This document shows, piece by piece, positions 4,461-62,038 of a stretch of DNA of 64,000 nt. The stretch spans positions 12,817 to 76,816 of the forward strand of contig JAKAMG010000014.1 of assembly GCA_021812985.1 (NCBI GenBank). Reading direction: 5' to 3'. A program made the translations under genes and the position numbers. The DNA comes from Bacteroidota bacterium (GTDB lineage Bacteria; Bacteroidota; Ignavibacteria; Kryptoniales; JAKASW01). Within the stretch, counting starts at the first letter, position 1; every line of letters starts with the position of its first letter. The notes beneath the pieces are model-generated. The model was not told the DNA's origin. It saw only the letters and a program-made list of their open reading frames with translations, and searched no databases.

Positions 4461-4464
4461 ACGA

Positions 4465-6178: not shown

Positions 6179-6223
6179 AAACTTTTAATCTAAAATCCAG
6201 GATCGAAGATCGTCGATACCAAT

Positions 6224-7989: not shown

Positions 7990-7990
7990 A

Positions 7991-11026: not shown

Positions 11027-11065
11027 TTTGAGCAGTTCGAATTTAGACATATCGTTGGAGGTATA

Positions 11066-12670: not shown

Positions 12671-12739
12671 CCGCGTCCGAAGTGAATCGGCGTGTGCTCT
12701 AACTAGGAATTCAAAATTAAGAATTGAGAATCTATTAAA

Positions 12740-20023: not shown

Positions 20024-22228
20024 TTAATTGTAAATGACGATACGCTGCCCGGGGCGGATGTCCGGACCGTTATCGTTCCATTCCTTCAGCTTGTGGATGC
20101 TAACGCCGAATTTCTTCGCGATACTCCAGAGAGAATCGCCGCGCCGCACTTTGTACACCATTTTGGATTCCGAAGACTCGGCGAGCATCCTCTCATCTTT
20201 CGATGCGCCATGGGAGGTGGCCTCGACAATCAGACGCTGCCCGGGTCTTATCCTGTTTCCGCCAAGGTTATTCCAATCCTTAATTTCCGCGACCGTGACC
20301 CCGTACTGTGAAGCTATCGTGGTCAAGTTCTCGCCCCTTCTTACCTTATGGTATGCGCTGTGATCCGTCGTCGGGACGAGGCGAGTCTTTCTTTCAGCGA
20401 CGAGTGTCTTCTCGCGTCGGCTCTCCGTCGTCTTGATGGGGGCGGCCGAAGTAATCAAGCGCATCCGCGGCTTTATCATAGAGCTTCGCAGATGGTTCAA
20501 GCGTTTGAGCGCGGAGACCGTGGTTCCGTAAGCGTCAGCGATACCGCTAAGCGTTTCACCCCTTCGAACTATGTGTATCCGGTCCCCGTCTCTTCCAACT
20601 GTCCGGCGACGCGAGGCTATGTTATTCTCGCGGGATGATGCTTCGCTCGAATAATATGAGCTTCTAACTGGTATAATGAGGAGGCTGCCAGGCCTGACGC
20701 GGCGGGTTCTCCATGAAAGGTCGTTGGCACGCCTTAGGGCCACGAGGCTGACCCTGTACCTTCGAGCTATTCCGTAGAGCGTTTCGCCGCGCGTTACTTT
20801 GTGAAACGTCCATGTCAGTTTGCTCGACTCAGGAAGCTTCTGGTAATCCTCCGCGAACACAGGACCCATCCCTTTGGGGACCAGCAGGGGGTAACCCTCT
20901 CCGTCGAAATCAGGCGGGGTTACACCGTGAACGAGCTCGGGATTCATCGTCCTAAGGGAGTCGTAAGACATCCCCGTGGCATCAGCAAGTACCTTCAGGT
21001 CAACGCTGTCCGGGATTCTGACAGTATCGCAAGGAGCAGGAGCCGCGTCGACGCTGTCGACAAATCCGTATGCTGTCGGATTAAGCGCGATAAGTGTTAC
21101 CGCAATATATTGCGGGACGTAGTTTCTCGTCTCGCGCGGGAGGAAGCGCTTGATTTTCCAGAAGTCCATACTTCCGCCGCTTCGCCTTATCGCCCTGTCA
21201 ACCGAATGCGTGCCGCAGTTGTATGCCGCGATTGCCAAATACCAATCGCCGTAATATGAGTATAAATCCTTCAGGTGGCTGGCCGCTGCTTCCGTGGCCT
21301 TTACGGGGTCACGTCTTTCATCGTACCACCAGTTCGAATGCAGGCCGTAAAGGCTTCCGGTGGACTGGATGAACTGCCATAGACCAACAGCACGTGCCCA
21401 TGACCGTGCGGCGGGGTTGAGTCCGCTTTCGGGCATCGAAAGATATGCTACCTCGGGCGGGAGGGAGTCTCTCATGAAAATCTTCTGCATCATGGGGATG
21501 TATCTGCCCGAGCGATAGATCCAGTCCTGCATGTGCCATCTGCCGCGTGTCGTGAAAAACTCTATGTTCTGCTCGACGAACTTGTTCATGACAAGAGGGA
21601 CAGTGGTTGGAGGGAGTTTCGTCGGGGCAGGAAACGTTGCTCCCGACACGTTTATCGAGTCGACTATCTGAGAGAGCTTCTCCTGAAGTGCGAAGACTGA
21701 AGTCCCCGGGCCCAGGTTCTGAACAGTTGAAATGTATCTTTCATAGTCGCTGATAGTTTTCTGGCTGAGGTCGACAAAATCCTTATTCTCTTCGATATCA
21801 GGGTAATAGCTGAGATCGTTCAGGACATCGATTGCCTGCTCAAATTCGATTGCAGACGAGTCCTGTGCCCCTGACTTCTGCAGCCTGAGCGCATCCTGAT
21901 AATGGTCGCGGGCGATCGAGAGGAGCTTGTCTACTGCGTCGTCATCGGTGACGATGGAATCTATGCCGTACCTGTAAAGTGATGAGAGCTTCGTCTGCTG
22001 AACGACTGCTCTCCGGCTTATCTCTATAGAGGATTTGAGACCAAGCGAATCAATTTGACTCTTCGCATCATTGTTTGAAAGCTTCTGCAATTCTCTGTTG
22101 GAGGAACAGGAGAACGAAATGATACCGAACAGCCCCCCCAAGAGCATCAAAATAGAGCGTTTTTTAAGCATTTGCCTCGTTCGTTTGAAAATACTCACAA
22201 ATATAGGCCTAACCGGCAGTTTTGTCAA
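20024..22228 (-). CDS. membrane-bound lytic murein transglycosylase with four C-terminal LysM domains (MltD-like)
   Basis: 734 aa. SLT core ([22 protein letters not shown]...AYNCG) followed by four LysM repeats (..VRRGETL.GIA..Y...L...N..). Confidence 0.85.
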
Positions 22229-22319: not shown

Positions 22320-23981
22320 TCAGAACACAACAGGCTCTTCGTAAACTCCGAATACCTCCTTTAAAGTTTCGCACATCTCCCCGATTGTGGCGTAGGCGCG
22401 AGTCGCCCTCAATAGATGAGGCATCAGGTTGCTTCCGTCCCTGGCAGCGGCGAGAAGGGCGTCGAGCGATTCCTTCACTTCTCTGTCGCTCCTTCCTTTC
22501 CTAACCTCAGCAAGACGTTGTCGTTGCTTCAACTCCACTTCTCGCGATATTTCAAGTATTGGAATGGATATCTCTTCATTCTCCTGAACGAACTCGTTTA
22601 CCCCGACTATGATCTTTTCCTTCCTGTCAAGTTCCTGCTGGTAACGGTAAGCGGCATCGGCGATCTCGCGCTGAAAGAACCCCTGCTCAATGGCCGGTAT
22701 CACGCCTCCCAGTGAATCTATCTTCTTGAGGTAGCTCTCGACCTCCGCTTCCATCTTGTTCGTCATGCTTTCCACGAAGTAACTCCCTGCGAGCGGGTCA
22801 ATTGTATTTGCGACACCCGTCTCATGTGCCAGTATCTGCTGTGTTCGGAGTGCTATCGTAACGGCCTTCTCGCTCGGCAGGGCGAGCGTTTCGTCCATCG
22901 AGTTTGTATGGAGTGACTGAGTACCGCCGAGCACGGCAGCAAGAGCCTGGTAGGCCGTTCTGACTATGTTGTTCTCCGGTTGCTGTGCAGTCAGTGAGCA
23001 ACCGGCAGTCTGGGTATGAAATCTTAACGCTAGAGTGCGTGGGTTTGTAGAGCCGTATTTGCCACGCATCCGTCTAGCCCAGATTCTTCTGGCGGCGCGG
23101 AATTTGGCGATCTCTTCGAAGAAATCCACATGAGAATTGAAGAAGAAAGATATCTGCGGGACGAAATCATCGACCTTCAGACCTGCAGCAATGCCAGCCT
23201 CTACATATGCAAAGCCGTCGGCGAGAGTGAACGCAAGCTCCTGGGCGGAGGTGGAACCGGCTTCCCTTATGTGGTAACCGCTGACAGAGATTGGGTTCCA
23301 CTTCGGCATCTCCCGGGCGGCGTAACCGAACATGTCGGTTATTATTCTCATCGAAGGTTCAGGTGGATAAATCCATTCCTTCTGCGCAATGTATTCCTTT
23401 AATATGTCGTTCTGAATCGTGCCGCGTAGCTGGTTCGGCTTGACTCCCTGTTTCTCGGCGACCACAATGTAGAACGCGAGAAGCATGGCCGCCGGGGCAT
23501 TGATCGTCATCGAAGTCGAGACTTTGTCCAGCGGTATACCCGAAAAGAGGATCTCCATATCCGCGAGTGAGCTGACAGACACTCCGCAGACACCGACCTC
23601 TCCGTCTGAGAGAGGGTCGTCAGCGTCCCGCCCCATGAGAGTCGGGAGGTCAAAGGCCACGCTGAGTCCGGTTTGACCGTTCTCGAGAAGATAATGGTAC
23701 CGTTTGTTCGAGTCTTCTGGTGTTCCGAAGCCCGCAAACTGTCTCATTGTCCAAACTTTTCCGCGGTACATCGTCGCGTGTATGCCGCGAGTGTAAGGGA
23801 ACTCTCCCGGGAAACCGAGGTCATTTTGGAAGTCCATACCGGCGATATCTTCCGGGGTATAGAGCATGTCCACGGGCTCACCGCTTACCGTGGTGAACTT
23901 GACAGGCCGGGTTTTGGTCTTATCCGCCTTCGCCTGCCATTCGGCCTTCCGTTTGCTGAATTCTTCATCGATGTGCTTCAT
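22320..23981 (-). CDS. methylmalonyl-CoA mutase-family catalytic (large, N-terminal) subunit, no fused B12-binding domain
   Basis: 553 aa with [58 protein letters not shown]. The length matches the TIM-barrel substrate domain only. Confidence 0.9.
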
Positions 23982-24691
23982 CGAATCACCTCTTTTTTAT
24001 CCGCCCCCGTTGGGTCAGGGGGCTGGGATCTCATTTTGTGATAAGATTCCGTTAATGCTCTCAACGCCGCGAAGGACATCATTATGTAGCCGATAAAAAA
24101 CGGGAGCCATGTGAATCCCTGCGGGACGTAATTTTCGAGGCCTTTTGGGCTACGATATATCAAGATATAAAAAATTTTCCCTGTAAACGAGTAGAGAACT
24201 GGAATACATCCGGCGATGAACAGCCAGATGTTGATTGGTCTGAACTGTACAGCCGCGCCTATGGTTCCGAGTCTCAAAAGCATCATTGAGGTTCCACCCA
24301 GGAGCAGCGCTATCATGATCGGGGCAATCACAGGCCCTATCCAGATTACTGGTATGAGAAAGAGTACGTCCGGTGTAAGGAGCGAAGGGGGCCAACCGAC
24401 GAGAGACTTCAGCGTCAGGTAGTAAACCAGGTCCCAAACTGCGAAGGCGTACACGAAGAAAAGCCACCGTTCCGTGCGCTCCCTCCCGGCCAGATAGCCG
24501 ACCGTGGCAAGCATTATCACCGTCGCGATCTCCCGACCAACTTCCATCGCTCCCAGCTGTGGCTGGAGGAGCCGCAGTGGAAAGACCTGTATCGGATTTC
24601 CAAATATCATCTCTCGTATGTAGATGACGAGCGCGCCTTCCAGGTAACCCATCGCGACGGAATAGAGTGTGACTGTGGCTAGCCTCTTCAT
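23978..24691 (-). CDS. polytopic membrane protein of unknown function
   Basis: About 7 hydrophobic segments. The stop overlaps the mutase ATG by 4 nt (ATGA). The start is taken at the internal ATG (MKRLATV, 24691); the ORF-track start at 24787 is possible but adds a non-hydrophobic leader. Confidence 0.6.
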
Positions 24692-24875
24692 TATCAAATT
24701 TGGGAAAGTAGGCGGATTGATACAACGTGAGGTGCACTTACGGTAATGTGTATTGGCGGTGAGCCGCGCGGCCTCGCCGGTTCGCATGGCGGGAAGAGGA
24801 GGAGGGGGAGGAAAGCCGGGCCATGTTTCTTGCTTTGCGAAAATGGCTTGGTTAAATTGGTCTACGACATTTCAG

Positions 24876-26048
24876 ATGAGGAAAAAAACAGGGATCGCGA
24901 TACTCGGCTCGACCGGATCGATCGGTAAGAGCAGCCTCGATGTTATTACCAGCATGAATGAGCACGGTGAGAACTACGAGGTCACATTTCTTGTCACAAA
25001 CAAGAACGTTGATCTACTGTATCAACAGGTCAGGAAGTACAATCCTTTAGGCGTCGTCATAATCGATGAGAGCCGGGCGAATCAGTTCAGGTCGTATCTT
25101 AACGGGGAGAAGCTCAAGGTTTACTCCGGTGAGGAAGGGCTCATGGAAGTCATGGCGGGCGGAGAGTTCGACGTTTTGATCAGCGGACTCGTCGGTTTCG
25201 CCGGATTGCGACCGACCCTGAAGGCGCTGGAAGCGGGCAAGACGGTCGCTCTCGCGAACAAGGAGACAATGGTCGTCGCAGGAGAGATTGTAAACGAAAC
25301 CGCGCGGAGGCATAACGCGAAAGTCCTCCCTGTCGACAGCGAGCATAGCGCCATCCTGCAGTGTTTCTCGGGTGAAGGGAAGGAGTCAGTTGCGAAGCTC
25401 ATTCTGACCGCGTCGGGTGGCCCTTTCCTTAATCATACCAGGAAACAGCTCGAGAACGTAACGGTGGAAGAAGCCTTGAACCACCCGAATTGGCGGATGG
25501 GAAACAAGATCACCATAGATTCAGCTACGCTGATGAACAAGGGGCTTGAAGTCATAGAGGCTCATTACCTTTTTGATCTACCGGCTGACCGCATCGAGAT
25601 AGTGGTACATCCACAGTCGATCATCCATTCGATGGTGGAATTTGTTGACGGGTCGATAAAGGCGCAGCTCGGAATGCCTGACATGAAGATACCGATCCAG
25701 TACGCTCTGACCTATCCACAAAGAGTTCGCTCGAAGTATCAGCGCGTGGATTTCGGTAAGATCAGCCAGCTGACATTTATGAAGCCTGACACGGACAAGT
25801 TCACTCTGGTCAAGTCTGCGTACGAGGCACTGCGCGCCGGCGGTACGGCGACGGCGATATTGAACGCCGCTAACGAAGCGGCCGTCGATCTGTTTCTGCG
25901 CGGCAAGATCAGATTCCTGCAGATCGCGGAGTACGTCAAGGGGGCTCTCGATTCGATTGAATCTAAGAGCGCGCCGGCAATTGAGGAGATTTTCGAGGCA
26001 GATAGAGCTGCAAGACAGTTCGTTTATGCCGAGACGGAGCGAGTCTGA
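24876..26048 (+). CDS. dxr: 1-deoxy-D-xylulose 5-phosphate reductoisomerase
   Basis: GIAILGSTGSIGKSSLDV NADPH-binding N-terminus, plus LANKETMV and DSEHSAI motifs. Start chosen at ATG 24876 (MRKKTGIAILG) rather than the 24753 extension. Confidence 0.9.
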   Translation: MRKKTGIAILGSTGSIGKSSLDVITSMNEHGENYEVTFLVTNKNVDLLYQQVRKYNPLGVVIIDESRANQFRSYLNGEKLKVYSGEEGLMEVMAGGEFDVLISGLVGFAGLRPTLKALEAGKTVALANKETMVVAGEIVNETARRHNAKVLPVDSEHSAILQCFSGEGKESVAKLILTASGGPFLNHTRKQLENVTVEEALNHPNWRMGNKITIDSATLMNKGLEVIEAHYLFDLPADRIEIVVHPQSIIHSMVEFVDGSIKAQLGMPDMKIPIQYALTYPQRVRSKYQRVDFGKISQLTFMKPDTDKFTLVKSAYEALRAGGTATAILNAANEAAVDLFLRGKIRFLQIAEYVKGALDSIESKSAPAIEEIFEADRAARQFVYAETERV

Positions 26049-26133
26049 GTTTCCCGCTTTTATTCGTGAGTTGTGAATCACCGGCCTCGACGGGCATATT
26101 TCGAGACCCTATCGTAACACCAAAAATTGAGAA

Positions 26134-27441
26134 TTGCTGATGACATATATCATTTATTTCATCATAACGATCGGCGTCCTGGTTCTTGTGCATGAATTCG
26201 GGCATTTCATAGCTGCCAAGCTTTCAGGCATGCGCGTCGACACGTTCTCCATAGGTTTTCCGCCGCGCGCATTCGGCAAGAAGATAGGCGAGACTGACTA
26301 TTGCGTCTCGTGGATTCCCATCGGCGGTTATGTGAAGATTGCCGGCATGATCGACGAAAGTTTTGACACCGAGTTCGTGAACAAGCCTCCGGAGCCCGAC
26401 GAGTTCCGATCCAAACCAATGTACAGAAGGATAATTGTCGTATCCGCGGGCGTGATAATGAATTTTCTCCTAGCCTTTCTGATTTTTTATGGGATTAATC
26501 TTGCCAACGGGAAGGTTTTCCACTCTACGACTACCGTAGGTTACGTGGATCCGAAATCTGTCGCCGAGAAGGTCGGGTTTCAGCAGGGGGACAAGCTCCT
26601 CTCAGTCAACGGTAAGGGGCTGAAGAATTGGGAGGACGTGCAGACACGTTTCTACCTCGATGATGTTGCAGGCACGCTTTCCGTTCAGCTCGACCGCGGC
26701 GGAAACGTGGCCACGATCCAAATCCCGAAGGGGAGCGTCAAACCGGACGAACCAATCGGGATTTACCCGGACCACATGCACGCGATGATCGACGCCGTCA
26801 CGCCCGGAATGCCGGCCGCGAAGGCGGGAATAAGACCCGGTGACGTGATCACATCGATCAACGGGGTACAGATCGCAACAAATGCACAGGTCGTCGACCT
26901 GGTTATGAAGAACAAGGGCCGGCAGATTGAGATGGGCATCCGGCGTGCCAGCGAAGACAAGGTTATCGAAGTGACTCCCAATTCTGATGGAAAGATAGGA
27001 ATCGAAATTGGGACGGAGTACACGGGCCCTGTTCAGAGGTTCAGCTACAACGTCATATCGGCCATACCTGCCGGGTTCAATCAGACCGTTGGTGCGACAG
27101 CTCTTCTGATTCAATCGATCTCGCGGATGATAACGGGGAAGGTATCCTTCACTAAATCGATAGGCGGGCCGATCAAGATCGCTCAGCTCGCCACGCAAAG
27201 CGCTGAGATGGGACTGATCAGCTATCTTGGTTTCATTGCGCTGCTGAGCATAAGTCTGGCAGTGCTGAACATACTTCCCATCCCGGCGCTCGACGGCGGT
27301 CATCTGGCGTTCTTGATTTACGAATCGATATTCAGGAGGGAAGTCCCTGCCAGGGTGAAACTGCTGGCGCAGCAGGTCGGATTTGCGCTGTTGCTTCTCT
27401 TCATGGCTTTTGTAATCTACAATGATATTGTGCATTTCTAA
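26134..27441 (+). CDS. rseP: site-2 (M50) zinc metalloprotease RseP
   Basis: 435 aa with HEFGHFIAAK, a PDZ region and the C-terminal NILPIPALDGGH motif. The dxr-rseP pairing is conserved. Confidence 0.9.
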   Translation: MLMTYIIYFIITIGVLVLVHEFGHFIAAKLSGMRVDTFSIGFPPRAFGKKIGETDYCVSWIPIGGYVKIAGMIDESFDTEFVNKPPEPDEFRSKPMYRRIIVVSAGVIMNFLLAFLIFYGINLANGKVFHSTTTVGYVDPKSVAEKVGFQQGDKLLSVNGKGLKNWEDVQTRFYLDDVAGTLSVQLDRGGNVATIQIPKGSVKPDEPIGIYPDHMHAMIDAVTPGMPAAKAGIRPGDVITSINGVQIATNAQVVDLVMKNKGRQIEMGIRRASEDKVIEVTPNSDGKIGIEIGTEYTGPVQRFSYNVISAIPAGFNQTVGATALLIQSISRMITGKVSFTKSIGGPIKIAQLATQSAEMGLISYLGFIALLSISLAVLNILPIPALDGGHLAFLIYESIFRREVPARVKLLAQQVGFALLLLFMAFVIYNDIVHF

Positions 27442-27524
27442 CCGCAGGCTTTGCCGGGAGTGATGCTTATCATCCACTCTTTCTCCGGTGAGTCTATAGA
27501 TTTGTTATGAAAAGGGAGGAGAAA

Positions 27525-28625
27525 ATGCGGCTTTTCGGCAGATTGCTCATGGCTTTGAGTCTGTTTGTGATTTCGCTGCCGGCCAGAGCGCAGGTGGGAC
27601 AGCAGGCCGTGACACTCACGCTTACCGTTCCTCAATACAACCAAATCTATGTTGCCGATCTCGATGTCCAGCATGTGAAGAATGCCGGGGTCTTGTTCTC
27701 GGCCACGCTCCATTCAAACGTATTAGCGCCCGTTAGCGTAAAGCTCAGGATGACCGTGAACGTTATTCTCGCAGACGGGACAGCTTATGAAGACATCGCG
27801 GACGCTACGACCAACCCGTTCACGCTTGCTCCCGGTCAGACAAAAGTAATAACAAACGTGGATTTTTCCGGCGACAACCCTTCGATAAGCATCGAGAGCT
27901 CGAATTACAATTCGGACCAGGTTGACAAGTTGAAGAGCGTCGCCCTTGCGACCGGTAAGGCGCCCGCCGGAGAGTACCAGTTTCATCTCGAATGCCTGAA
28001 CGGTGCTGATAACAGCCCGATCAGCGAGGCTACTCAGTCAATCTATGTGACTAACCCGAGCAGGGTAGAGCTTGTTCTACCGACGAATCAGGAGAGCATA
28101 ACAACTTTGTTTCCCCATCTCCAGTGGTCATCGAATGTCGACACTGTGGTCTTGTCTGTGTACGAGAAGCTTCCGAGTCAGCAGAGCCCGGAGGATGTAG
28201 TTTCCGGAGTGCCGTTTCTTCGAATGACAGTTCCAAACTCGACGTCACCCTCTCCAGGGTCGTTTAACTATCCGCCCTCCGGTCCGGGCGTCAGGCCACT
28301 TCAGGCAGGTAGGACCTACTACTGGTATGTGGAAGTCCCTTCCTCGTCATCAAGGGGAAGCGGAATCAGAAGTGACATTTGGAACTTCTCCATCGAGGGC
28401 ACGGGGTCAGGCTCATCATCCTCAGGCGAAGGCGGCAGCAACGCCGCAGCGACTACCACGCTTAAGGACCTCCTCTCCGGGACGCCTTTCGGGAATTTGT
28501 CCTCCCAGATTCAGTCCCTTACCGGTGTGGCCACCTATGATGGCAGCACGTTGGATATTCAGCAGGTTATGGAGCTCCTCAGGACGATGGATAAATCAAA
28601 AATTACAAATGTTACGGTTCAGTGA
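27525..28625 (+). CDS. secreted protein of unknown function (first gene of the CHASE2 operon)
   Basis: Signal peptide MRLFGRLLMALSLFVISLPARAQ. ATG 27525 has the RBS gggaggag 4 nt upstream, so I prefer it over 27507. There is a Ser/Gly-rich linker near the C-terminus. No family recognised. Confidence 0.6.
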   Translation: MRLFGRLLMALSLFVISLPARAQVGQQAVTLTLTVPQYNQIYVADLDVQHVKNAGVLFSATLHSNVLAPVSVKLRMTVNVILADGTAYEDIADATTNPFTLAPGQTKVITNVDFSGDNPSISIESSNYNSDQVDKLKSVALATGKAPAGEYQFHLECLNGADNSPISEATQSIYVTNPSRVELVLPTNQESITTLFPHLQWSSNVDTVVLSVYEKLPSQQSPEDVVSGVPFLRMTVPNSTSPSPGSFNYPPSGPGVRPLQAGRTYYWYVEVPSSSSRGSGIRSDIWNFSIEGTGSGSSSSGEGGSNAAATTTLKDLLSGTPFGNLSSQIQSLTGVATYDGSTLDIQQVMELLRTMDKSKITNVTVQ

Positions 28626-28635
28626 GGAGGCGGCG

Positions 28636-29319
28636 ATGAAAAAGAGAAACGTAATATTACTCGTTGCCTTGTTTGTCGTCTCCGCTTCACTGGCTTTCAG
28701 GGCGGCCGAGCCGAGCAACGTGGCCCTCTTCTGGATCATAAAAAACGACGTCCAGAAAAAGCCGGCCGAACACAGTTGGGAGAACGCAAAGAAGGGCGAA
28801 TTGATCTATGGCGGAGACTTTGTCAGGACACAGAAGGAGTCCTTCGCGCTCATAAAGTTCAACGATGCCAGCACGCTGAGGCTTGGACCGAACTCGGAGG
28901 TCCAGGTGTACGGGGAGAATAATCCGTCAAGCACGAACATAACGAGCGGCGACGTTGGCTTTACGATGACAAAGAGGAAGACGAAACCGTTCGAGTTCAC
29001 GACACCCACCAGCGTCGCTTCCATACGAGGCACTCAGGGGATGCTCGGAGTACAGATGGATGGCACGGACTTCCTAACGATCGTCGAAGGACTAGTCAGA
29101 TTTTCGAACAAACTTTCAAACAAAACTGTCGACGTAGGCGCCGGACAGACAGGCGAATCGTCCAAAGACGGGAGCATATCGGTCCGTGAGTCGACGCAGA
29201 ATGACCTTAAGAGGGTCACCGATCTCAACAACCAGTTGGGTCAAAAACATGAGATGAAGATACAATTCCGCGGCAGCGACGGACAGCTGCATGAGCTGAT
29301 AATCGAGACTCAGCAGTAG
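28636..29319 (+). CDS. secreted FecR-domain-like protein
   Basis: ATG 28636 with RBS gaggagg. Signal peptide MKKRNVILLVALFVVSASLAF. The central GDFVRTQKESFALIKFNDASTLRLGPNSEVQV resembles the FecR sensor fold. The 28327 ORF-track start lies inside the upstream gene. Confidence 0.65.
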   Translation: MKKRNVILLVALFVVSASLAFRAAEPSNVALFWIIKNDVQKKPAEHSWENAKKGELIYGGDFVRTQKESFALIKFNDASTLRLGPNSEVQVYGENNPSSTNITSGDVGFTMTKRKTKPFEFTTPTSVASIRGTQGMLGVQMDGTDFLTIVEGLVRFSNKLSNKTVDVGAGQTGESSKDGSISVRESTQNDLKRVTDLNNQLGQKHEMKIQFRGSDGQLHELIIETQQ

Positions 29320-29347
29320 GCTGCGGATCAGAACAAACAAAGCAGGC

Positions 29348-31795
29348 TTGGTCGGAGGGAGTGTGAGGAGAAACAGGAGGGAATTTGCCTGGCGGCAAAT
29401 CGCGGCTCTGTTGGCGTTCGGTTGTGTCCTCTTCTTGGGCAGTTCCAGGGAGGCGAATGCGCAGCAGGGTCAAATCATAAATATCACCGCCACATCTGGG
29501 GCTACCGAGAATAATTCGTTGAACGTGAAAGCGGAGGTGAAAAGCCTTCAGAACATTTCTCAGGCGCTTCTTTTCTACAGGAACGACCTTTCAACGGATT
29601 TTCAACAGACAGAAATGAGCTTCGATGAGTCGTCGATGACTCTTAATGGCACCGTGCCGGCAGCGTATGTGGTCAGCCCTTACGTCGAGGTGTACGTGAG
29701 ACTGGTGATGCGCGACGGCACTTCCGAGACTTATCCCGTTGAGAGTCCGACGGAGAACCCGGTGCGTATTGCGGTCGCGGCGCCTGAGGCCGGACAAGAT
29801 ATACTTATAATCAGCCCGGAGCGGAACCAGAGGCTCTCGCTCGACAATCTGATGATAGCCGCTTCGATGCTTTACGCTCCTCAGTCCGTCGACAGGAAGA
29901 AAACGAAACTTTACCTGGACGGCATTGATGTCACTTCTGACGCAGTCGTTAGCGGCGATATAATTGTCTACTCCCCTTCCAAGTTTCCTATGACCATTTC
30001 ACGCGGCATCCATACCGCACGAGTCGTGCTGTACAAGTCTGACGGCAGTGAATACAACAGCCTCGAGTGGAGCTTCTTTGTTATGACCGCTGAAGAGGCC
30101 GAGGCCGAAAGCCGTGTCACCTATCAGGGCAACGCACAGGTCGAGGCGAGAAACGAAACGATAAGCGGAAGCTCAACATGGTACAACAGGGGAGACCTCA
30201 ATCTCGGCGGCGCGGGTTATGGCATGAACGTGGGCGCAAATCTCCATCTGACATCGGAGGAAAAATCTTACAGACAGCCGCAGGACAGATACGGGCTTTA
30301 CCTCGGCACCTCGTGGTTAAGCCTGAGGTTCGGAGACAGCTATCCGGCATTCAGCCCTCTGATTATGAACGGACTCCGCGTCCGCGGCGTCTCGGGCAAG
30401 GTCTCCCTGGGATTCTTCAATTTCGAGGCGGCGTACGGCCAAACGGTCAGAGGAATCAACGGCCAGTATCTAGACACAGTGGTCGTCAGCCCCGGTTCGC
30501 CGATGCAGCTGACGGGCGCGAACTACATCAAACTGAACGATTCTACTTTCGTAAACGTGGACTACGGGACTTACTCCCGCAATCTTTTCGCCGTGAGACC
30601 GTCTTTCAATTTCGGCAGCCACGCTACGCTGGGATTCACGTACCTGAAGTCCTCGGATGCAGTAAGCTCAATAGGCATCGGGACCAATCCGAACCAGAAC
30701 CTCGTGCTTGGAAGTGATTACTCGATGAATTTCGACAGTCACAGGATCAACTTCCTGGCTGAGGCGGCGATGAGCATGGTCAACCAGAACACTTCCGTGG
30801 GAACGCGCTCCGCTGCATATATCGACTCGGTCTCGCAGTCGGACGCAGGGACTCAGATCAACAACGTCGTCCCGATCACGACTCTTTCGCAATTCATCAC
30901 GATAAATGAATTTCTCGTACCGCTCGATCCTACGAAAAGATCGTCGCTCTCATGGGATGCCAGTCTGAGCCTAAACTATTTCAATACGTTCGCCAAAGTC
31001 GGCTATGTGTATCGTGGGCCGGATTACAATTCGTTTGGACAGCCGTTCATCAGGACCGATATCCGAGGCCTTAACTTCTTCGTCAGGCCGAGACTATTCA
31101 GCAATCAGGTGCTCGTTTCCCTCTCGTACGAAAATCTCTTCGACAACCTGCAAAAGAATAAGTTTGCGACAACGAATTATGTGAACTCAAATTTCTCGGT
31201 ATCGTATTTCCCCCTGGGCGCTGTTCCCAACATTACAGTCGGCTTTTCTTCCTACGCGAATTCGAACACCCTTCCGCTTGATTCGCTATACGCAGTCGAC
31301 AATTTGACGGAGAGGTACTACATCGAATCAGGCTACTCCTTCAATCTTCTCGTAAGACAGAATGCCTCGGTGAGTTTCGGAATAAGCAACAGGAAGGACA
31401 AGATCCTCCTCGGGACCGATCTGAACAATTTCAACGTCTCATTCATGCTCAACTCGGATTTCGGGGCCGTGCCCTTGAGAACGACTGTCGGCTTCAATAT
31501 CAACGGAAATAAGACCACGCTTCACGACACGACTGCGGCGACACTGGCTGAGCAGATACAGACATTCAACTACACTTTTCTGACGGTCGGAGCGCAGTAC
31601 AGGCTCTTCCATGACAAGCTCAGCATAGGTGCCAATTACACTCCGACGTTTGGAGATTTTGTGAGGAACACATTCGGCTTCGTCGCTAGTTATGCCGTCG
31701 CGAGGTCGCAATCGCTGAACCTGAACGTTAACTATTTCGCCGTAACCGGATCGAACGATTTTGTCGGCTCGCTGATATACGCCATAGATTTTTAA
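29348..31795 (+). CDS. predicted outer-membrane beta-barrel protein with an N-terminal soluble region
   Basis: 815 aa with a signal-like AALLAFGCVLFLGSSREANAQQ. It has a long Y/G/N/S-rich C-terminal part with alternating polarity and ends ..LIYAIDF (terminal aromatic residue, as in OM barrels). Exact start uncertain (TTG 29348 or GTG 29363). Confidence 0.55.
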   Translation: MVGGSVRRNRREFAWRQIAALLAFGCVLFLGSSREANAQQGQIINITATSGATENNSLNVKAEVKSLQNISQALLFYRNDLSTDFQQTEMSFDESSMTLNGTVPAAYVVSPYVEVYVRLVMRDGTSETYPVESPTENPVRIAVAAPEAGQDILIISPERNQRLSLDNLMIAASMLYAPQSVDRKKTKLYLDGIDVTSDAVVSGDIIVYSPSKFPMTISRGIHTARVVLYKSDGSEYNSLEWSFFVMTAEEAEAESRVTYQGNAQVEARNETISGSSTWYNRGDLNLGGAGYGMNVGANLHLTSEEKSYRQPQDRYGLYLGTSWLSLRFGDSYPAFSPLIMNGLRVRGVSGKVSLGFFNFEAAYGQTVRGINGQYLDTVVVSPGSPMQLTGANYIKLNDSTFVNVDYGTYSRNLFAVRPSFNFGSHATLGFTYLKSSDAVSSIGIGTNPNQNLVLGSDYSMNFDSHRINFLAEAAMSMVNQNTSVGTRSAAYIDSVSQSDAGTQINNVVPITTLSQFITINEFLVPLDPTKRSSLSWDASLSLNYFNTFAKVGYVYRGPDYNSFGQPFIRTDIRGLNFFVRPRLFSNQVLVSLSYENLFDNLQKNKFATTNYVNSNFSVSYFPLGAVPNITVGFSSYANSNTLPLDSLYAVDNLTERYYIESGYSFNLLVRQNASVSFGISNRKDKILLGTDLNNFNVSFMLNSDFGAVPLRTTVGFNINGNKTTLHDTTAATLAEQIQTFNYTFLTVGAQYRLFHDKLSIGANYTPTFGDFVRNTFGFVASYAVARSQSLNLNVNYFAVTGSNDFVGSLIYAIDF

Positions 31796-31820
31796 TCTCC
31801 GCCGTGGTTACCTTTAGCTG

Positions 31821-34022
31821 ATGCAGCAGATCGGCGGCACACTTTCGAGGACGCGGAAGTTCGTACTCCCGCTCATAATGGCCTTTGCCGCCTCGGCCGT
31901 TTCGTTTCTTCTCTCCAGGAACATCCCGTTCCATGTCCCTTTCCTCGAAACGGCTCAGTTGAGAACGATCGACGAGCGCTTCGAGGCGAGGGGCCCTGTC
32001 AATCTCGGCGATACTTCCAAAGTCGTCATTGTAGCCATTACTGACCAATCTTTCCAGACGCTTCCCAATACGCTTTTCTTTCCAAGGGAATATTACGCGA
32101 GGGCGGTCAGGAACCTCTTTGCCGCAGGGGCCAGGGCCGTCGCAATCGATGTCACCTTCGACGGCGATTCTCCGTTGGAGGGAGACGACAAAGCGTTCGC
32201 TGAAATGCTCAAAAAGTATCCTGCTACAGTCCTTGCCGTGAGAAGCAGCATTTCGGTCTCAGGGAAGTTCAAGGTGTTGAAGAGTGAAGACTTCTTTCAC
32301 AATATTTTCGTGCGTGAGGACAGCTCCATTGGGGCGGTTCTCGTTAAGAACGATCCGGACGGAGTGTACCGGAGATACATGCCGATGGTGGCATTCCAGA
32401 CTGGGGAGAACCGATTCATGGACGTCCCATCGTTCGGGTTCAGGGCAATGTCAGAGTATCTCGGGCTCAGGAATCCGATAGCGGCAGACAGCTCTTCTTA
32501 TTTTCGACTCGGGCCTGTGAAGATACCCAAGTACGATGAGACATCCATGCTTATCAACTATCCCGGCCCTTCGGGAACATTTCCCACGTACGATATCTGG
32601 CAGGTACTCGACGATTCGTCTTTCACGACGAATGACGAAAAGGACTTCGGCCTCCAGATAAATTACTATTACTCCCTTCGTGACAGCAATGTGTTCAGGA
32701 ACAAGATTGTTCTCATTGGAGCGGAGTACCCTGAGTCGGGCGACCTTAAGCCGATACCGTTTCTCAAGGACCCGACCGACGAGCACAGCAACCTCGCATA
32801 TGGGGTCGAGATTCACGCGAGTGCGATCGAAACGGTACTGGACCAGGATTTCCTGAGGCCCGTCGGCCAGCTGGCTGATTTCCTCGAGATGTTTCTGGGG
32901 GCATTCCTGATCGCCATGACCTCATTCCTCTTCAAGTCTGCGAGGCACTCGCGCATGGTCCTCGTCATATTTCTCCCGCTGGTCGTGACCGCCGGTGTCA
33001 TATATGTCTCGTACCAGGCCGCGTTCATCCTTTTCGTTGAAAGCAGGCTCGTCCTTAAGATTATATACCCTATTCTCTCGTACTCCCTTACATACGTGTC
33101 CGTTGTCGTCTACCAGTTTGTGTCCGAGCGGAAGGCCAAGACGGCGATAAAGTCGCTCTTCAGCAGATATGTCGACCCTTCAGTGGTGAACCAGCTTGTT
33201 GGAAATCCTGACCTCGTCAGGTTGGGAGGGCAGCGCAGGATCCTGTCCGTCCTGTTCTCGGACATAGCAAACTTCACGTCAGTCAGCGAGAAGCTGTCCC
33301 CTGAGGACTTGATAAATCACCTTAACGAATACCTCTCGGCGATGACTGAAGTTGTGTTTGAGAATTCGGGCACATTGGACAAGTACATAGGCGACGCGAT
33401 AATTGCCTTCTGGGGTGCCCCACTCGAATTGAAGGACCACGCTTATCAGGCTTGTAGGGCGGCTATGGAGATGACCCGAAGGCTTGATGGACTGCACTCC
33501 AAATGGTCCGCGGACGGGAAACCGATTCTAAACTTCAGGATAGGTATCAATTCCGGCGAGATGGTCGTGGGCAATGTCGGAGGAAGGGACAGGTTTGATT
33601 ATACCGTTATAGGGGACAACGTGAACCTCGCATCCCGGCTCGAGTCGGCGAACAAAATGTACAGGTCGAGGATACTCCTGAGTGAATACACGTACGAGCT
33701 CGTCAAGGAGAGAGTTTTCGCCAGGGAACTGGACCTCATCGTCGTCAAGGGAAAAACGAAGCCCGTGAAGATTTACGAGCTCCTGTCGGATCAGAAAGAC
33801 GGCATAAGCGAGGATAGACGGAAGGTCGTCGAGCTGTATTGCGCCGGTCTTTCCAAATACCGGAGCAGGGAATGGGGTGCAGCAGCTGAGCTTTTCATTA
33901 AGGCGCTGGACATCGATTCATCCGATTATCCTTCAGAGATGTACCTCGAGCGAAGCAAGCTTTACGAGATCGAGCCTCCGCCTCCTGACTGGAACGGCGT
34001 CTTCATTATGACGACCAAGTAA
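31821..34022 (+). CDS. CHASE2 sensor domain-containing class III adenylate/guanylate cyclase
   Basis: 733 aa. N-terminal TM, a ~330-aa extracytoplasmic region (VIVAITDQSF...IVLIGAEYP...) and a TM bundle. The cyclase core reads LSVLFSDIANFTSVSE, GDAIIAFWGAP, RIGINSGEMVVGNVG, DYTVIGDNVNLASRLES. Confidence 0.85.
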   Translation: MQQIGGTLSRTRKFVLPLIMAFAASAVSFLLSRNIPFHVPFLETAQLRTIDERFEARGPVNLGDTSKVVIVAITDQSFQTLPNTLFFPREYYARAVRNLFAAGARAVAIDVTFDGDSPLEGDDKAFAEMLKKYPATVLAVRSSISVSGKFKVLKSEDFFHNIFVREDSSIGAVLVKNDPDGVYRRYMPMVAFQTGENRFMDVPSFGFRAMSEYLGLRNPIAADSSSYFRLGPVKIPKYDETSMLINYPGPSGTFPTYDIWQVLDDSSFTTNDEKDFGLQINYYYSLRDSNVFRNKIVLIGAEYPESGDLKPIPFLKDPTDEHSNLAYGVEIHASAIETVLDQDFLRPVGQLADFLEMFLGAFLIAMTSFLFKSARHSRMVLVIFLPLVVTAGVIYVSYQAAFILFVESRLVLKIIYPILSYSLTYVSVVVYQFVSERKAKTAIKSLFSRYVDPSVVNQLVGNPDLVRLGGQRRILSVLFSDIANFTSVSEKLSPEDLINHLNEYLSAMTEVVFENSGTLDKYIGDAIIAFWGAPLELKDHAYQACRAAMEMTRRLDGLHSKWSADGKPILNFRIGINSGEMVVGNVGGRDRFDYTVIGDNVNLASRLESANKMYRSRILLSEYTYELVKERVFARELDLIVVKGKTKPVKIYELLSDQKDGISEDRRKVVELYCAGLSKYRSREWGAAAELFIKALDIDSSDYPSEMYLERSKLYEIEPPPPDWNGVFIMTTK

Positions 34023-34070
34023 GCGAAGCCCGAAATTGCCTTTCAGAACCCGCAGATTTAAATTTACATC

Positions 34071-35159
34071 GTGAGCAAAGATAAATCAGAACGTAGGGTT
34101 GACAAGAGGCCGCATCGTGGTGTCACTCCGGATCAGGTGGGCGACGATGCGAGGTTCGACAGAGCCCTTCGGCCCAGGCAACTAAGCGAGTTCGTCGGCC
34201 AGAAGAAGATCGTTGACAAGCTGAGCGTGTTTGTGCAGGCGGCGAAGAAGCGAGGTGAGGCCCTCGACCATGTCCTTCTCATGGGACCGCCGGGACTCGG
34301 AAAGACCACGCTCGCCAACATAATCGCCAACGAACTCGAATGTGAGATAATATCTACCACCGGTCCCTCCCTGGAGAAGGCGGGAGATCTTGCAGGCATA
34401 CTGACATCCATTCAAAAAGATGTTGTCGTGTTCATAGATGAAGTGCACAGAATCCCTGCCTCGGTTGAGGAAATTCTCTATGGAGCCATGGAGGACTACA
34501 AGCTTTCCATCGTAGTGGATAGGGGGCCCGGGGCGAGAAACGTCCAGCTGAACGTAAACCCGTTCACGCTCGTGGCCGCCACAACGCGCGCCGGTCTCCT
34601 CAGTAATCCTTTCCGGTCGAGGTTTGGCATCATCGAGCGGCTCGAGTATTACGACGATGACTACCTCGAGAAGATTGTTGCAAGATCCGCATCGATATTG
34701 AAGGTTGCGTTGGATCGAGATGCAGCCTTTGAGATCGCGAGAAGGAGCAGGGGTACTCCTCGTATTGCAAACCGGTTGTTGAGGCGAACCAGGGATTTTG
34801 CGGAAGTGAAAGGGAAGAGAAAAATAGACATAGAGATCGCGAGGCACGCGCTCGACCAGCTGGAAGTGGATAAAACGGGCCTGGACGAAATGGACAGGAA
34901 GATACTTGCCACGATAGTCGATTACTACAAGGGAGGGCCCGTCGGAGTCAACTCGATAGCTGCGGTCGTAAGCGAAGATGCAGGAACTATCGAGGAAGTC
35001 TATGAACCATTCCTTCTTCAGAAGGGATACCTCAGGAGGACTCTCCGCGGCCGTGAAGCAACCGACAAGGCTTACGAGTTTCTCGGTAAGAAGACTCGGG
35101 GCGCTTCGGTTCAATCGAGCCTTTCGTTCGGTGAATCGGAGAAGAACCCGGATGCATAG
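34071..35159 (+). CDS. ruvB: Holliday junction branch migration helicase RuvB
   Basis: 362 aa, GTG start, Walker A GPPGLGKTTLA, VFIDEVHR, and the RGTPRIANRLLRR motif. Confidence 0.95.
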   Translation: MSKDKSERRVDKRPHRGVTPDQVGDDARFDRALRPRQLSEFVGQKKIVDKLSVFVQAAKKRGEALDHVLLMGPPGLGKTTLANIIANELECEIISTTGPSLEKAGDLAGILTSIQKDVVVFIDEVHRIPASVEEILYGAMEDYKLSIVVDRGPGARNVQLNVNPFTLVAATTRAGLLSNPFRSRFGIIERLEYYDDDYLEKIVARSASILKVALDRDAAFEIARRSRGTPRIANRLLRRTRDFAEVKGKRKIDIEIARHALDQLEVDKTGLDEMDRKILATIVDYYKGGPVGVNSIAAVVSEDAGTIEEVYEPFLLQKGYLRRTLRGREATDKAYEFLGKKTRGASVQSSLSFGESEKNPDA

Positions 35160-35348
35160 CGGGAGTCCCGCATCCTGAAACACAAAATCGAATCCGCGGG
35201 CGTTGAAGTACACTTTGCTGCGGTTCTGGCTATTTCCTCAGTGCCGATCAGGCCATCGTTCCTTCAAGAAATCCTGATTCCGTCCATGGTCTTATGATGA
35301 GACTGCCTGCCTCCGCAAAGGGGCGGTCCGATCCAAGGAGCAGATAAT

Positions 35349-35948
35349 GTGAAGGCCCCATATACTCCCCTTCCTCTGGCGTTTTTCCGCCGTGACACTT
35401 TCACAATTATCCCCGGTGTTCTCGGGAAAGTTCTTGTTCGCAAGATGGGTCCGAGAATAGTGGCCGGACGGATTGTCGAAGTGGAAGCTTATGTCGGGGA
35501 TGATCCTGCCAGCCACGCTGCCAAAGGGATGACTGAGAGAAACAAGGTTATGTTTGAGGCAGGAGGAGTTGCTTACGTATATTTCACCTACGGCATGCAT
35601 TTCTGTTTTAACATCGTTACTGATCGAAAGGACTTTCCCGCGGCTCTTCTCGTGCGGGCGTTGGAGCCGGTTGCCGGAATTGATGAAATGAAGAGGCGGA
35701 GAAGGACGCAAGACTTCAGGAATCTCACAAACGGTCCGGCGAAGCTGTGCCAGGCACTGGCCATAGACAAGTCACAGAACGGGATTACGCTAGCCTCCGA
35801 CGTTCTTTTCATTGCCGATGACGGTTTCACGTTGTCGTCTGGAGACATTGCGAGGTCGCCGAGGATTGGAATAAGGAACGGAACTGAGGTGGAGTGGAGA
35901 TTTTTTCTTAAGGGGAACGCCTTCGTTAGCCGAGGAAAAACAGATTGA
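35349..35948 (+). CDS. mpg: DNA-3-methyladenine glycosylase (Mpg/AAG family)
   Basis: 199 aa, GTG start, with GRIVEVEAYVGDDPASHA...AYVYFTYGMHFCFNIV, typical of the AAG family. Confidence 0.85.
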   Translation: MKAPYTPLPLAFFRRDTFTIIPGVLGKVLVRKMGPRIVAGRIVEVEAYVGDDPASHAAKGMTERNKVMFEAGGVAYVYFTYGMHFCFNIVTDRKDFPAALLVRALEPVAGIDEMKRRRRTQDFRNLTNGPAKLCQALAIDKSQNGITLASDVLFIADDGFTLSSGDIARSPRIGIRNGTEVEWRFFLKGNAFVSRGKTD

Positions 35949-36621
35949 GGTGCGGCAGGAAGAGGATGTACAGCGCCCACATCGTCAGCCCAAAAGAGAT
36001 CGGAACGGCGATGTTATCATCAACAATGCTGTACGAGAGGACTTCAGCAACAGCCGCAACCAGCGACGCCGCCACCCCAACCGCATACTCGGCAAGCGAG
36101 TAGTTGATTTTCGGAGTCAACGCAACCGCGACAACCGCGGCCAAAATGAACGCAAGGCTTCCCTCGTAACTCTTCGGGATGCCTCGCCCGGGCAGGACCT
36201 TGTGTCTTCCGTAACGTTTGCCGAACACCGCCGAAGAAGCGTCGCCAAGTATGAGCACCGTGAAGCTGTTTATCATTATGAACTTGGGGAAGATTATGAC
36301 GCATATGACCGCCGATATGAGCATGAAGGTCGCGCCATTCAGGGCATGCTTTTTCTCGTTGACCTCATGTCTTCTCAGGAGGAATCCGAAGAATTTGTAG
36401 AAAAGTTTTGAAATGAGAGGGACGTCGTAACGAGCAAGATCCACGGTGACGAACGCAGCGGTCATGGGGATAAGAATCAGGAGCGCGATAGCCTTTGGAA
36501 TGAAGTAGTAGGTTAGCGGAATCACGAGGGAGAGGAGGTGTATCCCCTTCCTCACCAATTCCGCTTTGAAATCTACGTTGTCCTGAACCGCCACCTGCTC
36601 CATCAAATCAGTAGATGTCAA
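35926..36621 (-). CDS. polyprenol/dolichol/phytol kinase-family (CTP-dependent) membrane protein
   Basis: 231-aa polytopic protein with VRKGIHLLSL...GDASSAVFGKRYGRHK...KSYEGSLAF, resembling the cytidylyltransferase/dolichol-kinase family. Confidence 0.6.
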   Translation of the reverse strand: MTSTDLMEQVAVQDNVDFKAELVRKGIHLLSLVIPLTYYFIPKAIALLILIPMTAAFVTVDLARYDVPLISKLFYKFFGFLLRRHEVNEKKHALNGATFMLISAVICVIIFPKFIMINSFTVLILGDASSAVFGKRYGRHKVLPGRGIPKSYEGSLAFILAAVVAVALTPKINYSLAEYAVGVAASLVAAVAEVLSYSIVDDNIAVPISFGLTMWALYILFLPHLNLFFLG

Positions 36622-40975: not shown

Positions 40976-41050
40976 TCGGGGTGTGGCTCAGTCCGGTTAG
41001 AGCACCTGCCTTGGGCGCAGGGGGTCGGAGGTTCGAATCCTCTCACCCCG
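40976..41050 (+). tRNA. tRNA-Pro (anticodon TGG)
   Basis: Hand-folded 75-nt cloverleaf. Acceptor CGGGGTG/CACCCCG+A; D arm GCTC-AGTCCGGTTA-GAGC; anticodon arm CCTGC-CTTGGGC-GCAGG (TGG, G37); T arm GGAGG-TTCGAAT-CCTCT. No encoded CCA. Confidence 0.9.
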
Positions 41051-41207
41051 ACAGAGAAATCCTTCAATCCGTAAGGAGTTGGGGGATTTTTTTTGTTTGA
41101 ACCTCTTATTTGGTTTTCGTCTGAAAAGCTCCATTCCACGAATATGGCACTGCATCTCCGCGCTTGAAAACCGCATGTTCGCCTTACGCTCGAAGAGGGA
41201 AGTCTCC

Positions 41208-52569: not shown

Positions 52570-52600
52570 CTCTCTCGTTTTGGCGTAGGCATACTGCCGC

Positions 52601-52643
52601 AGAGGCCTGAGCTTTTTCACGAGGCTCAGGCCTCTTTGCTTTT
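52601..52643 (+). terminator. rho-independent terminator
   Basis: 12-bp stem agaggcctgagc / gctcaggcctct followed by ttgctttt, 32 nt after the stop at 52569. Confidence 0.7.
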
Positions 52644-52673
52644 AGACTCCTTGCAAGATGCCAAACAATAGGC

Positions 52674-52856
52674 ACGCACCTGAAAAATATCTGCAACAAG
52701 CCCAAGGTCCGGACCGCGTCGGAGCAGTCTAGAAAGTCCTTAACGAAAAGCCCCTCTGGTTTCCCGTTGCCTTCGGCTAATCAGCCTTATCCCTACTTCG
52801 TCGATCTTCTTCGTCGACAGCCCGGCTGTCGAAAATACCGTAAACAAGTGATTGCC
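52674..52856 (+). repeat. copy 2 of the duplicated segment; includes a decayed LuxR-type HTH 3' relic
   Basis: 52674-52745 reads THLKNICNKPKVRTAS.., against THLKNIYNKLQVHSRTGAV.. in the intact regulator. After that, frame and stop are lost. The identical 25-nt box is at 52832-52856. Confidence 0.6.
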
Positions 52857-53011
52857 GGCGGCCGTGCAAGCAAATAGATTTGGTGAAATGAGAATCATCT
52901 GGTTTATCAGAAGGCTCAGATAAAGAGTCTTGTCAGGGGATCAGGTATGTCGCGGGGCCGTTCATACAATACAAACGTTCGCGTCACAAATTTGAAGGAA
53001 GGAGAAGTATT

Positions 53012-62007: not shown

Positions 62008-62038
62008 CTTCCTCGCTTTACCAGCAATTCGCCATTTA

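Follow-up and report, generated by a model that had tools for sequence, protein, structure and literature searches.

Whether an event at the outer membrane can be relayed to cytoplasmic cyclic AMP (cAMP) synthesis by the products of four neighboring genes is the question raised by a locus in a 64,000-nucleotide (nt) stretch of a Bacteroidota genome (assembly GCA_021812985.1, contig JAKAMG010000014.1, positions 12,817 to 76,816), referred to here at its full length as the window. The genes, designated g1 to g4, encode an exported protein outside known families, a FecR-like periplasmic protein, a putative outer-membrane barrel protein, and a membrane-bound cyclase with a CHASE2 sensor domain. 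CHASE2, which was defined in 2003, ranks with the most common domains by which bacterial cyclases, kinases, and diguanylate cyclases sense extracytoplasmic signals, and, as far as we are aware, neither a ligand nor a structure nor a mechanism of activation has been reported for it. We found that the cassette is an undescribed, widely conserved, split form of the theme in which an outer-membrane barrel, a FecR domain, and a CHASE2 cyclase are combined, and that it holds two protein families without a Pfam model, i.e., the putative barrel of about 26 strands (g3) and its tandem immunoglobulin (Ig)-like partner (g1). Our favored reading, to which we assign a probability of about 0.55, is that g1 to g4 make up one trans-envelope signal-perception module that sets adenylate cyclase activity.

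A conserved cassette of four genes

The four open reading frames (ORFs), with lengths in amino acids (aa), are arranged as follows.

27525-28625, plus strand: g1, ORF of 366 aa
28636-29319, plus strand: g2, ORF of 227 aa
29348-31795, plus strand: g3, ORF of 815 aa with the C terminus ...YAIDF
31821-34022, plus strand: g4, ORF of 733 aa

A model that read the letters alone (the original prediction) had described four same-strand genes separated by 10, 28, and 25 bp, and this layout of the block at 27525-34022 was confirmed. To examine its conservation, 50 loci were collected with a pattern scan, taking one genome per species; their ORFs were called and compared with iterated profiles of the four window proteins. 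The pattern was derived from a 4-sequence alignment, as the 45- and 9-sequence alignments had no stretch that was conserved enough. Gene order was judged in the 38 loci that had at least 2.0 kb of sequence upstream and 2.3 kb downstream of g3, and adjacency to g3 wherever the sequence permitted the test.

g1-g2-g3-g4, same order and strand: 33 of 38 loci
g1-g2-g3 only: 4 of 38 loci
g3-g4 only: 1 of 38 loci
g4 after g3, where testable: 42 of 46 loci
g2 before g3, where testable: 43 of 44 loci

The four-gene linkage is strong, not absolute, and the spacing between cassette genes is mostly below 50 bp across loci. All g3 homologues from the sequence search are unannotated proteins of about 800 aa from metagenome-assembled genomes (MAGs) of Kryptoniota, Ignavibacteria, or "Bacteroidota," and the nearest genome loci are Candidatus Kryptoniota or "Bacteroidota" MAGs with a g3 identity of 65 to 79%. 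Such Kryptoniota-type relatives, together with type IX secretion cargo proteins encoded elsewhere in the window, are consistent with a diderm of the Fibrobacteres-Chlorobi-Bacteroidetes (FCB) group. The same four-gene order was also present on contigs of candidate division KSB1 and Marinimicrobia and on two unassigned contigs, where the family profiles detected all four proteins (g1 at E values of 7e-43 to 3.5e-17). The cassette is hence kept in at least four FCB-group phyla (Kryptoniota, Ignavibacteria, KSB1, and Marinimicrobia), and its carriers include the cultured Rosettibacter primus and Melioribacter-labelled MAGs.

The genes flanking the cassette are unrelated between lineages. The upstream dxr-rseP pair is kept only in Kryptoniota (L006-L016) and one other lineage (L026, L030, and L033), and the downstream ruvB-mpg pair only in Kryptoniota. 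Because the flanks differ in this way, the conserved unit is exactly g1 to g4, and a functional link to rseP, which we had considered, was dropped as local synteny. Full-length homologues exist for all four ORFs and the block is kept as a unit in dozens of genomes, so neither the ORFs nor their arrangement can be put down to chance. Between Kryptoniota and Ignavibacteria, the fastest-diverging member is g1 (19 to 36% identity over partial lengths) and the slowest is g4 (38 to 45%). As a side observation, an alanine dehydrogenase gene replaces that of the CHASE2 cyclase after g3 in L046, L048, L050, and L054.

The CHASE2 adenylate cyclase

In Pfam, g4 matched CHASE2 (PF05226) with an E value of 1.8e-44 at aa 36-363 (nt 31926-32909), covering profile positions 13-254 of 257, and Guanylate_cyc (PF00211) with an E value of 1.2e-26 at aa 475-652 (nt 33243-33776). 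The first transmembrane segment (TM1) lies at aa 13-33, three more hydrophobic segments lie within aa 351-420, and a C-terminal tail occupies aa 660-733. Since the basic SRTRK (aa 9-13) before TM1 puts the N terminus in the cytoplasm, the CHASE2 domain is predicted to be periplasmic and the cyclase domain cytoplasmic. The protein shows the features by which CHASE2 is defined, namely, an extracytoplasmic domain with one N-terminal and several C-terminal transmembrane segments, followed by an output domain.

Class III cyclases are recognized by a residue code that consists of two metal-binding Asp residues, an adenine-selecting Lys/Thr pair in subclass IIIb, and the transition-state Asn and Arg. 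The closest solved relative of g4 is the catalytic domain of Pseudomonas aeruginosa CyaB (3r5g; E value, 1.1e-40), and the alignment with it placed FSD (Asp481), DKYIGD (Lys521 and Asp525), and DYTVIGDNVNLASR (Thr595, Asn602, and Arg606) of g4. All six subclass IIIb catalytic residues are present and are aligned with the same residues of CyaB. Because the Lys521/Thr595 pair is of the adenine type and the six residues are intact, g4 should be, as predicted from sequence, an active homodimeric adenylate cyclase and not a guanylate cyclase. Thus, a CHASE2 sensor joined to a class III cyclase with intact catalytic motifs, as originally described, was supported by both the Pfam matches and the alignment with 3r5g, whereas the proposed output of cAMP or cGMP was narrowed by the two specificity residues: cAMP was retained and cGMP was not. 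One MAG (L014, 8460-10660) encodes its g4 orthologue in two overlapping ORFs, of 536 and 203 aa; the gene may be frameshifted, and thus possibly a pseudogene, or the assembly may be wrong at this point.

The FecR-like periplasmic protein

At the N termini of three of the products (g1, g2, and g3), a hydrophobic stretch resembling a signal peptide precedes an AxA-type site, and no convincing lipobox was seen in any of them when judged by eye only. The N terminus of g2 reads MKKRNVILLVALFVVSASLAFRA, with a signal peptide at about aa 1-23. Its FecR-type character, which the original prediction had noticed as a motif, was borne out by a Pfam match to FecR (PF04773; E value, 4.3e-13; aa 62-154, nt 28819-29097). 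The sole hydrophobic segment of g2 is at aa 3-26, and because this is the signal peptide, the protein is without a transmembrane anchor; besides, it has no cytoplasmic anti-sigma domain.

Next to FecR, g2 weakly matched DUF7354/MtxA_N (PF24045; E value, 3.7e-4; 20.7 bits against a cut-off of 31.4). Among its orthologues, that of L030 scored 37.1 bits, which is above the cut-off, and the others scored 20 to 24 bits; the KSB1 orthologue carries a precomputed annotation of MtxA_N plus FecR. Only sub-threshold matches, to leptospiral FecR-type proteins, were obtained from NCBIfam, and a sequence search of solved structures gave nothing meaningful. We conclude that g2 is a soluble periplasmic protein of the FecR type, possibly also related to MtxA_N. 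A longer g2 of 359 to 375 aa occurs in one lineage (L026, 5266-6393; L030, 4795-5874; L033, 5284-6393), where N-terminal FecR and DUF7354 parts are joined to an extra C-terminal region of about 130 aa without a Pfam match and the g2-g3 spacing is wider.

A putative large outer-membrane barrel

An AlphaFold2 model of g3, built with 45 homologues (mean predicted local distance difference test [pLDDT] score, 78.4; predicted template modeling [pTM] score, 0.62), has an N-terminal signal helix (aa 5-31), two Ig-like beta-sandwich domains (about aa 43-246, nt 29474-30085), and an all-beta C-terminal region (aa 258-814, nt 30119-31792), in which most 10-residue blocks have pLDDT scores of 80 to 92. 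With the long insert at aa 368-409 taken as a loop, 26 strands were counted from the secondary-structure string. Most of them alternate hydrophobic and polar residues, the turns are short on one side and the connections longer on the other, and the barrel ends with a C-terminal Phe. Because the strand count is even, both termini and the Ig-like domains would lie on the same side, presumably in the periplasm. The model agrees with the proposal that the 815-aa protein consists of a soluble N-terminal part and a barrel.

Foldseek searches against the PDB returned only giant barrels, at 8 to 11% identity. The best match was MtrB (6r2q_B; E value, 5e-10; TM-score, 0.52 by target length; 9% identity), and FimD and PapC ushers, TonB-dependent transporters, SlpA, and LptD (rank 41) were found besides. 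The predicted fold class is clear, and no family could be assigned to it. No Pfam or NCBIfam match was obtained for g3, no family at an E value of 0.05 or below when 45 relatives were compared with Pfam one by one (only sporadic sub-threshold matches to generic barrel models), and nothing from a sequence search of solved structures. Membership in the LptD, MtrB/PioB, usher, or TonB-dependent transporter families was considered and rejected, as the likeness was at the fold level only and no family signature accompanied it: neither PF11854 nor an LptD/OstA signature was found in the g3 relatives, and g3 had no Plug, STN, or TonB_dep_Rec match in Pfam and no TonB-box. Sequence inspection revealed no CxxCH haem motif in g1 or g2.

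Unusually, conservation within g3 is highest in the longer loops, as seen from the following scores.

aa 303-313 (SEEKSYRQPQD): 0.76
aa 332-344: 0.71
aa 557-571: 0.70
aa 599-608: 0.67
strands, mean: 0.55

Because the longer loops are the best conserved parts, they suggest a binding site or a lumen-filling element. A profile search with g3 retrieved 3450 cluster representatives at E values of 0.001 or below, 671 of them at 1e-30 or below, with distant members from candidate division KSB1 and Marinimicrobia. Judging from the model, we regard g3 as a putative outer-membrane barrel protein of a family that has no curated model. Separately, the first Ig-like domain (about aa 40-125, window 29465-29722; profile positions 31-116) matched 18 to 20 tandem repeats in two giant proteins of 3051 and 4022 aa (P0277 and P0280), one of which also contains PKD, Big_7, and beta-helix domains.

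An exported protein outside known families

The N terminus of g1 reads MRLFGRLLMALSLFVISLPARA followed by QVG, with a signal peptide at aa 1-22. In the AlphaFold2 model (pLDDT score, 80.1), beta-sandwich domains at about aa 29-175 and 182-290 are followed by a disordered linker rich in Gly and Ser (aa 294-303) and, at the C terminus, by a small helical domain (aa 302-366). Foldseek matches of the model were limited to generic tandem beta-sandwiches, such as transglutaminase C-terminal domains and RbmA. In accordance with the first reading of g1 as a signal-peptide protein without a recognizable family, neither Pfam nor NCBIfam gave a match, and 32 relatives compared singly with Pfam gave just sporadic sub-threshold matches to generic porin and outer-membrane barrel models. 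Homologues at the same cassette position exist in Ignavibacteria, KSB1, and Marinimicrobia. A paralogous relationship with the N-terminal domains of g3 was ruled out (hhalign probability, 0.7%). Thus, g1 is an exported protein of a family without a curated model.

Gene boundaries and flanking genes

The start codons of g1 and g3 are uncertain. Public gene calls at an identical locus start g1 at ATG 27507 (372 aa) and g3 at GTG 29363 (810 aa), the latter giving a g2-g3 spacing of 43 bp. We favor ATG 27525 for g1 because GGGAGGAG is located upstream of it at 27514-27521, whereas for g3 the start is probably GTG 29363, since GGAGGG (29354-29359) precedes that codon. Our sequence search with g1 returned no match above 65% identity in spite of the identical public locus, which the word-index search evidently missed.

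The cassette is co-directional with dxr, rseP, ruvB, and mpg (window 24753-35948). The rseP product is an M50 site-2 protease with two PDZ domains, and mpg is a methylpurine-DNA glycosylase gene. A promoter and terminator consensus scan of 25800-35500 gave no clear excess over shuffled sequences (9 versus 6.0 ± 2.7 and 14 versus 8.9 ± 3.2), and neither end of the g1-g4 block had a site resembling a promoter or a terminator. Rfam and tRNA scans found nothing in the g1-g4 region. The four genes had been called an operon; what stands is a tight, co-conserved set and a putative operon of uncertain extent, the flanking genes being co-directional and the block ends having no terminator-like site.

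A possible relay from the outer membrane to cAMP

The analysis above establishes the parts, their predicted locations, and their genetic linkage. In the reading that we favor, g1, g2, and g3 would be exported, and g3 would span the outer membrane, its Ig-like domains facing the periplasm. Then g2, probably together with g1, would connect g3 with the CHASE2 part of the g4 dimer. That contact would be altered by an event at the barrel, which would thereby relieve the inhibition that CHASE2 exerts on the cyclase dimer, and cAMP would rise; the triggering event could be the binding of an external, possibly proteinaceous, ligand at the unusually conserved barrel loops. The relay from the outer membrane to the cyclase, which the original prediction had also proposed, is one that we infer from anatomy, linkage, and analogy. 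The analogy is provided by Sinorhizobium meliloti, because there a FecR domain and a barrel are fused in NsrA, NsrA is needed for signaling through the cyclase CyaK, and the cyclase CyaD1 is constitutive without CHASE2. According to PMC7529298 and PMC13001267, both NsrA and CyaK are needed for perceiving nodule signal 1 and the purified ribosomal protein uL2, and a second signal is handled by CyaD1/D2. According to the legend to Figure 2 of PMC5498481, a CyaD1 construct without CHASE2 makes cAMP constitutively, and for that reason CHASE2 is taken to be an inhibitory input domain. The barrel is predicted, the four genes are co-conserved, and the catalytic residues are intact, the opposite of each being what the original prediction had listed as counting against itself.

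Several points weigh against this reading. The contacts among the four proteins, the direction of signaling, and the nature of the signal are inferred, and the membrane orientation and strand count of g3 were read from a secondary-structure string and not from coordinates. Four Ignavibacterium-type loci (L046, L048, L050, and L054; about 4000-8400) have g1-g2-g3 and no adjacent cyclase, and one Ignavibacteriota locus (L003, 8001-12703) has g3-g4 without g1 and g2. No cAMP receptor was found among the ORFs of the window, where a crude regular-expression scan for cyclic-nucleotide-binding sequences was a weak test. Besides, the analogy with NsrA-CyaK appears from sequence comparison to be architectural and not a whole-system homology, because the g3 barrel has no detectable sequence relation to that of NsrA.

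Other explanations account for parts of the same evidence. The four genes might share no function and simply lie side by side in a run of co-directional housekeeping genes, as could be suspected from the seven neighboring genes that share the plus strand with the cassette and from block ends without promoter-like or terminator-like sites; we regard this as very improbable, since it is already contradicted by the recurrence of the four-gene block, with gene order preserved, in 33 of the 38 species-level loci and in four phyla, between unrelated flanks. It is possible, if doubtful, that the cassette senses the state of the envelope with no external ligand. In that case, g1, g2, and g3 would report outer-membrane or peptidoglycan integrity, or barrel assembly, to CHASE2, as in stress systems whose inner-membrane sensor is contacted by a partner associated with the outer membrane, and the stress output would be cAMP. 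The position of the cassette directly after dxr-rseP, which includes an envelope-stress protease gene, fits this in Kryptoniota and a second lineage, but there is no rseP adjacency in Melioribacteraceae, Ignavibacteriaceae, KSB1, or Marinimicrobia. Similarly, the Burkholderia FecR partner of a CHASE2 kinase has a peptidoglycan-binding LysM domain (PMC5192318), whereas no peptidoglycan-binding domain was found in g1, g2, or g3. Conservation that peaks in the g3 loops is more in keeping with an internal partner that stays constant than with an external ligand that diversifies; however, the sole studied relative answers an exogenous proteinaceous signal (PMC7529298).

We consider it rather unlikely that g3 is mainly a transport or secretion channel, which would export or display g1 or import a substrate while the FecR-like protein and the CHASE2 cyclase monitor its occupancy, akin to the coupling of transport and signaling in FecA-FecR. 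A barrel of about 26 strands far exceeds the size of a passive anchor, and FecR domains are classically paired with a transporter; on the other hand, a plug, an STN domain, and a TonB-box are all missing from g3, and the cassette is not linked to any TonB/ExbBD or ABC transporter gene. The tandem Ig-like domains and flexible linker of g1 have a shape typical of surface-displayed proteins, which would suit display by g3, whereas the g3-g4 pair also occurs without g1, and the cyclase is the only constant neighbor of g3 besides g1 and g2. Two of the larger structural matches of g3 enclose a partner, with MtrB around MtrA and LptD around LptE, and this favors a channel.

Returning to the trans-envelope module, we tentatively propose, as something that may well prove wrong, that the physiological "ligand" of CHASE2 is a protein and not a small molecule, i.e., g2 plus g1 coupled to a 26-strand barrel that holds a partner protein. 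The partner would sit in the barrel lumen or at the conserved loops, as in MtrB-MtrA and LptD-LptE, and a continuous protein link would run from the surface to the cyclase. If this is true, the FCB cassette is the minimal, unfused form of a widespread principle of trans-envelope signaling, with g1 and g3 as two new protein families in its construction. The relay itself, if confirmed, would show that an outer-membrane event can lead to cAMP without TonB or a sigma factor.

Other features of the window

The remainder of the window contains the following features.

8906-14236, plus strand: three consecutive Proton_antipo_M genes, encoding complex I or Mrp-type subunits
20024-22228, minus strand: lytic transglycosylase with four LysM domains
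23978-24787, minus strand: ORF of 269 aa near the cassette, no Pfam family at an E value of 0.001 or below
35926-36621, minus strand: ORF of 231 aa near the cassette, no Pfam family at the same threshold
40977-41052, plus strand: tRNA-Pro(TGG), the only Rfam/ARAGORN match in the window
46002-47918: membrane sensor histidine kinase of the 7TMR-DISM type (7TMR-DISMED2, 7TM, HisKA_3, and HATPase_c)
48865-63950: cluster of type IX secretion cargo proteins with Por_Secre_tail
48865-52569 and 53012-55168: two BNR/sortilin-like cargo proteins
55755-60032: hybrid sensor of 1425 aa with Reg_prop/Y_Y_Y, histidine kinase, response regulator, and AraC domains, surrounded by the cargo genes
60397-62007: Peptidase_C25 gingipain-like protease, a cargo protein
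62238-63950: another cargo protein

Comparison with known systems

Our literature search found no paper linking the cassette to Ignavibacteria or Kryptoniota, and the systems that resemble it come from other bacteria. Like FecA-FecR-FecI, the cassette would lead from an outer-membrane barrel through a FecR-fold periplasmic domain to a cytoplasmic output, which is cAMP synthesis here and sigma-factor release there. FecR-type cell-surface signaling in the strict sense was rejected, as g2 lacks anti-sigma and transmembrane parts, g3 lacks plug and STN domains, and no extracytoplasmic function (ECF) sigma factor gene is present; the cassette neighbors are dxr, rseP, ruvB, and mpg, with no ECF sigma factor among them.

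A secreted protein of the FecR/MtxA_N type beside a CHASE2 receptor is known from Magnetospirillum, where periplasmic MtxA is followed by a CHASE2 adenylate cyclase (PMC4439547), and from Burkholderia, where a LysM/FecR protein adjoins a CHASE2 histidine kinase (PMC5192318). An outer-membrane barrel partner is mentioned in neither description, and the accessory domains differ (Big and TPR-like in MtxA and LysM in Burkholderia), as does the output of the Burkholderia pair, a histidine kinase. The four-gene cluster of Campylobacterota, which consists of a CHASE2 adenylate cyclase, a phosphodiesterase, a FecR-domain outer-membrane protein, and a tetratricopeptide repeat (TPR) protein (PMC9239204), is likewise centered on a CHASE2 cyclase with a FecR-containing outer-membrane partner, and a single pathway was deduced there from the clustering (PMC9239204). 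By its description, however, no family like g1 or g3 belongs to that cluster, while its cAMP phosphodiesterase and TPR protein are absent from the cassette.

The closest likeness is to NsrA-CyaK. Among plasmid sequences, g4 matches best with cyaK on pSymB of S. meliloti (BLASTP: 30% identity over 665 aligned positions, full length; E value, 3e-69), and nsrA lies directly upstream of cyaK, its stop codon overlapping the cyaK start. Pfam assigns aa 66-160 of NsrA (1200 aa) to FecR and aa 378-587 to TPR repeats, and according to the S7 Fig legend of PMC7529298 a beta-barrel occupies aa 600-1200. Between g2 and the FecR part of NsrA (aa 52-175), identity is 30% over 126 aa (E value, 2e-12). Hence both loci encode an outer-membrane barrel, predicted in the case of g3, and a FecR domain directly upstream of a CHASE2/class III cyclase, and the barrels are of similar size (about 560 aa in g3 and about 600 aa in NsrA). 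In NsrA, however, FecR, TPR, and barrel parts are fused, whereas FecR (g2) and barrel (g3) are separate here; no TPR match was found in g1 to g4 with Pfam, and the g3 barrel carries two Ig-like domains instead. Furthermore, g1 has no counterpart in NsrA-CyaK, and the host there is an alphaproteobacterium and not a member of the FCB group. Homology between the two barrels was rejected (hhalign probabilities of 0.1 with NsrA and 0.2 with a 13-member NsrA-barrel alignment), and relatives of the NsrA barrel match a TonB-dependent-receptor barrel model, whereas g3 relatives do not.

The original prediction stated that no such module had been mechanistically characterized, and in view of nsrA-cyaK this was too strong. 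NsrA-CyaK of one rhizobium is the sole experimental handle so far, with a partner, the 1200-aa fusion, that is hard to work with. The cassette is like NsrA-CyaK in outline and not a strict member of that family; it presents the same logic as four separate compact proteins, with dozens of orthologous sets that can be used for coevolution analysis and multimer prediction. Its value lies mainly in making the long-standing question of CHASE2 activation tractable.

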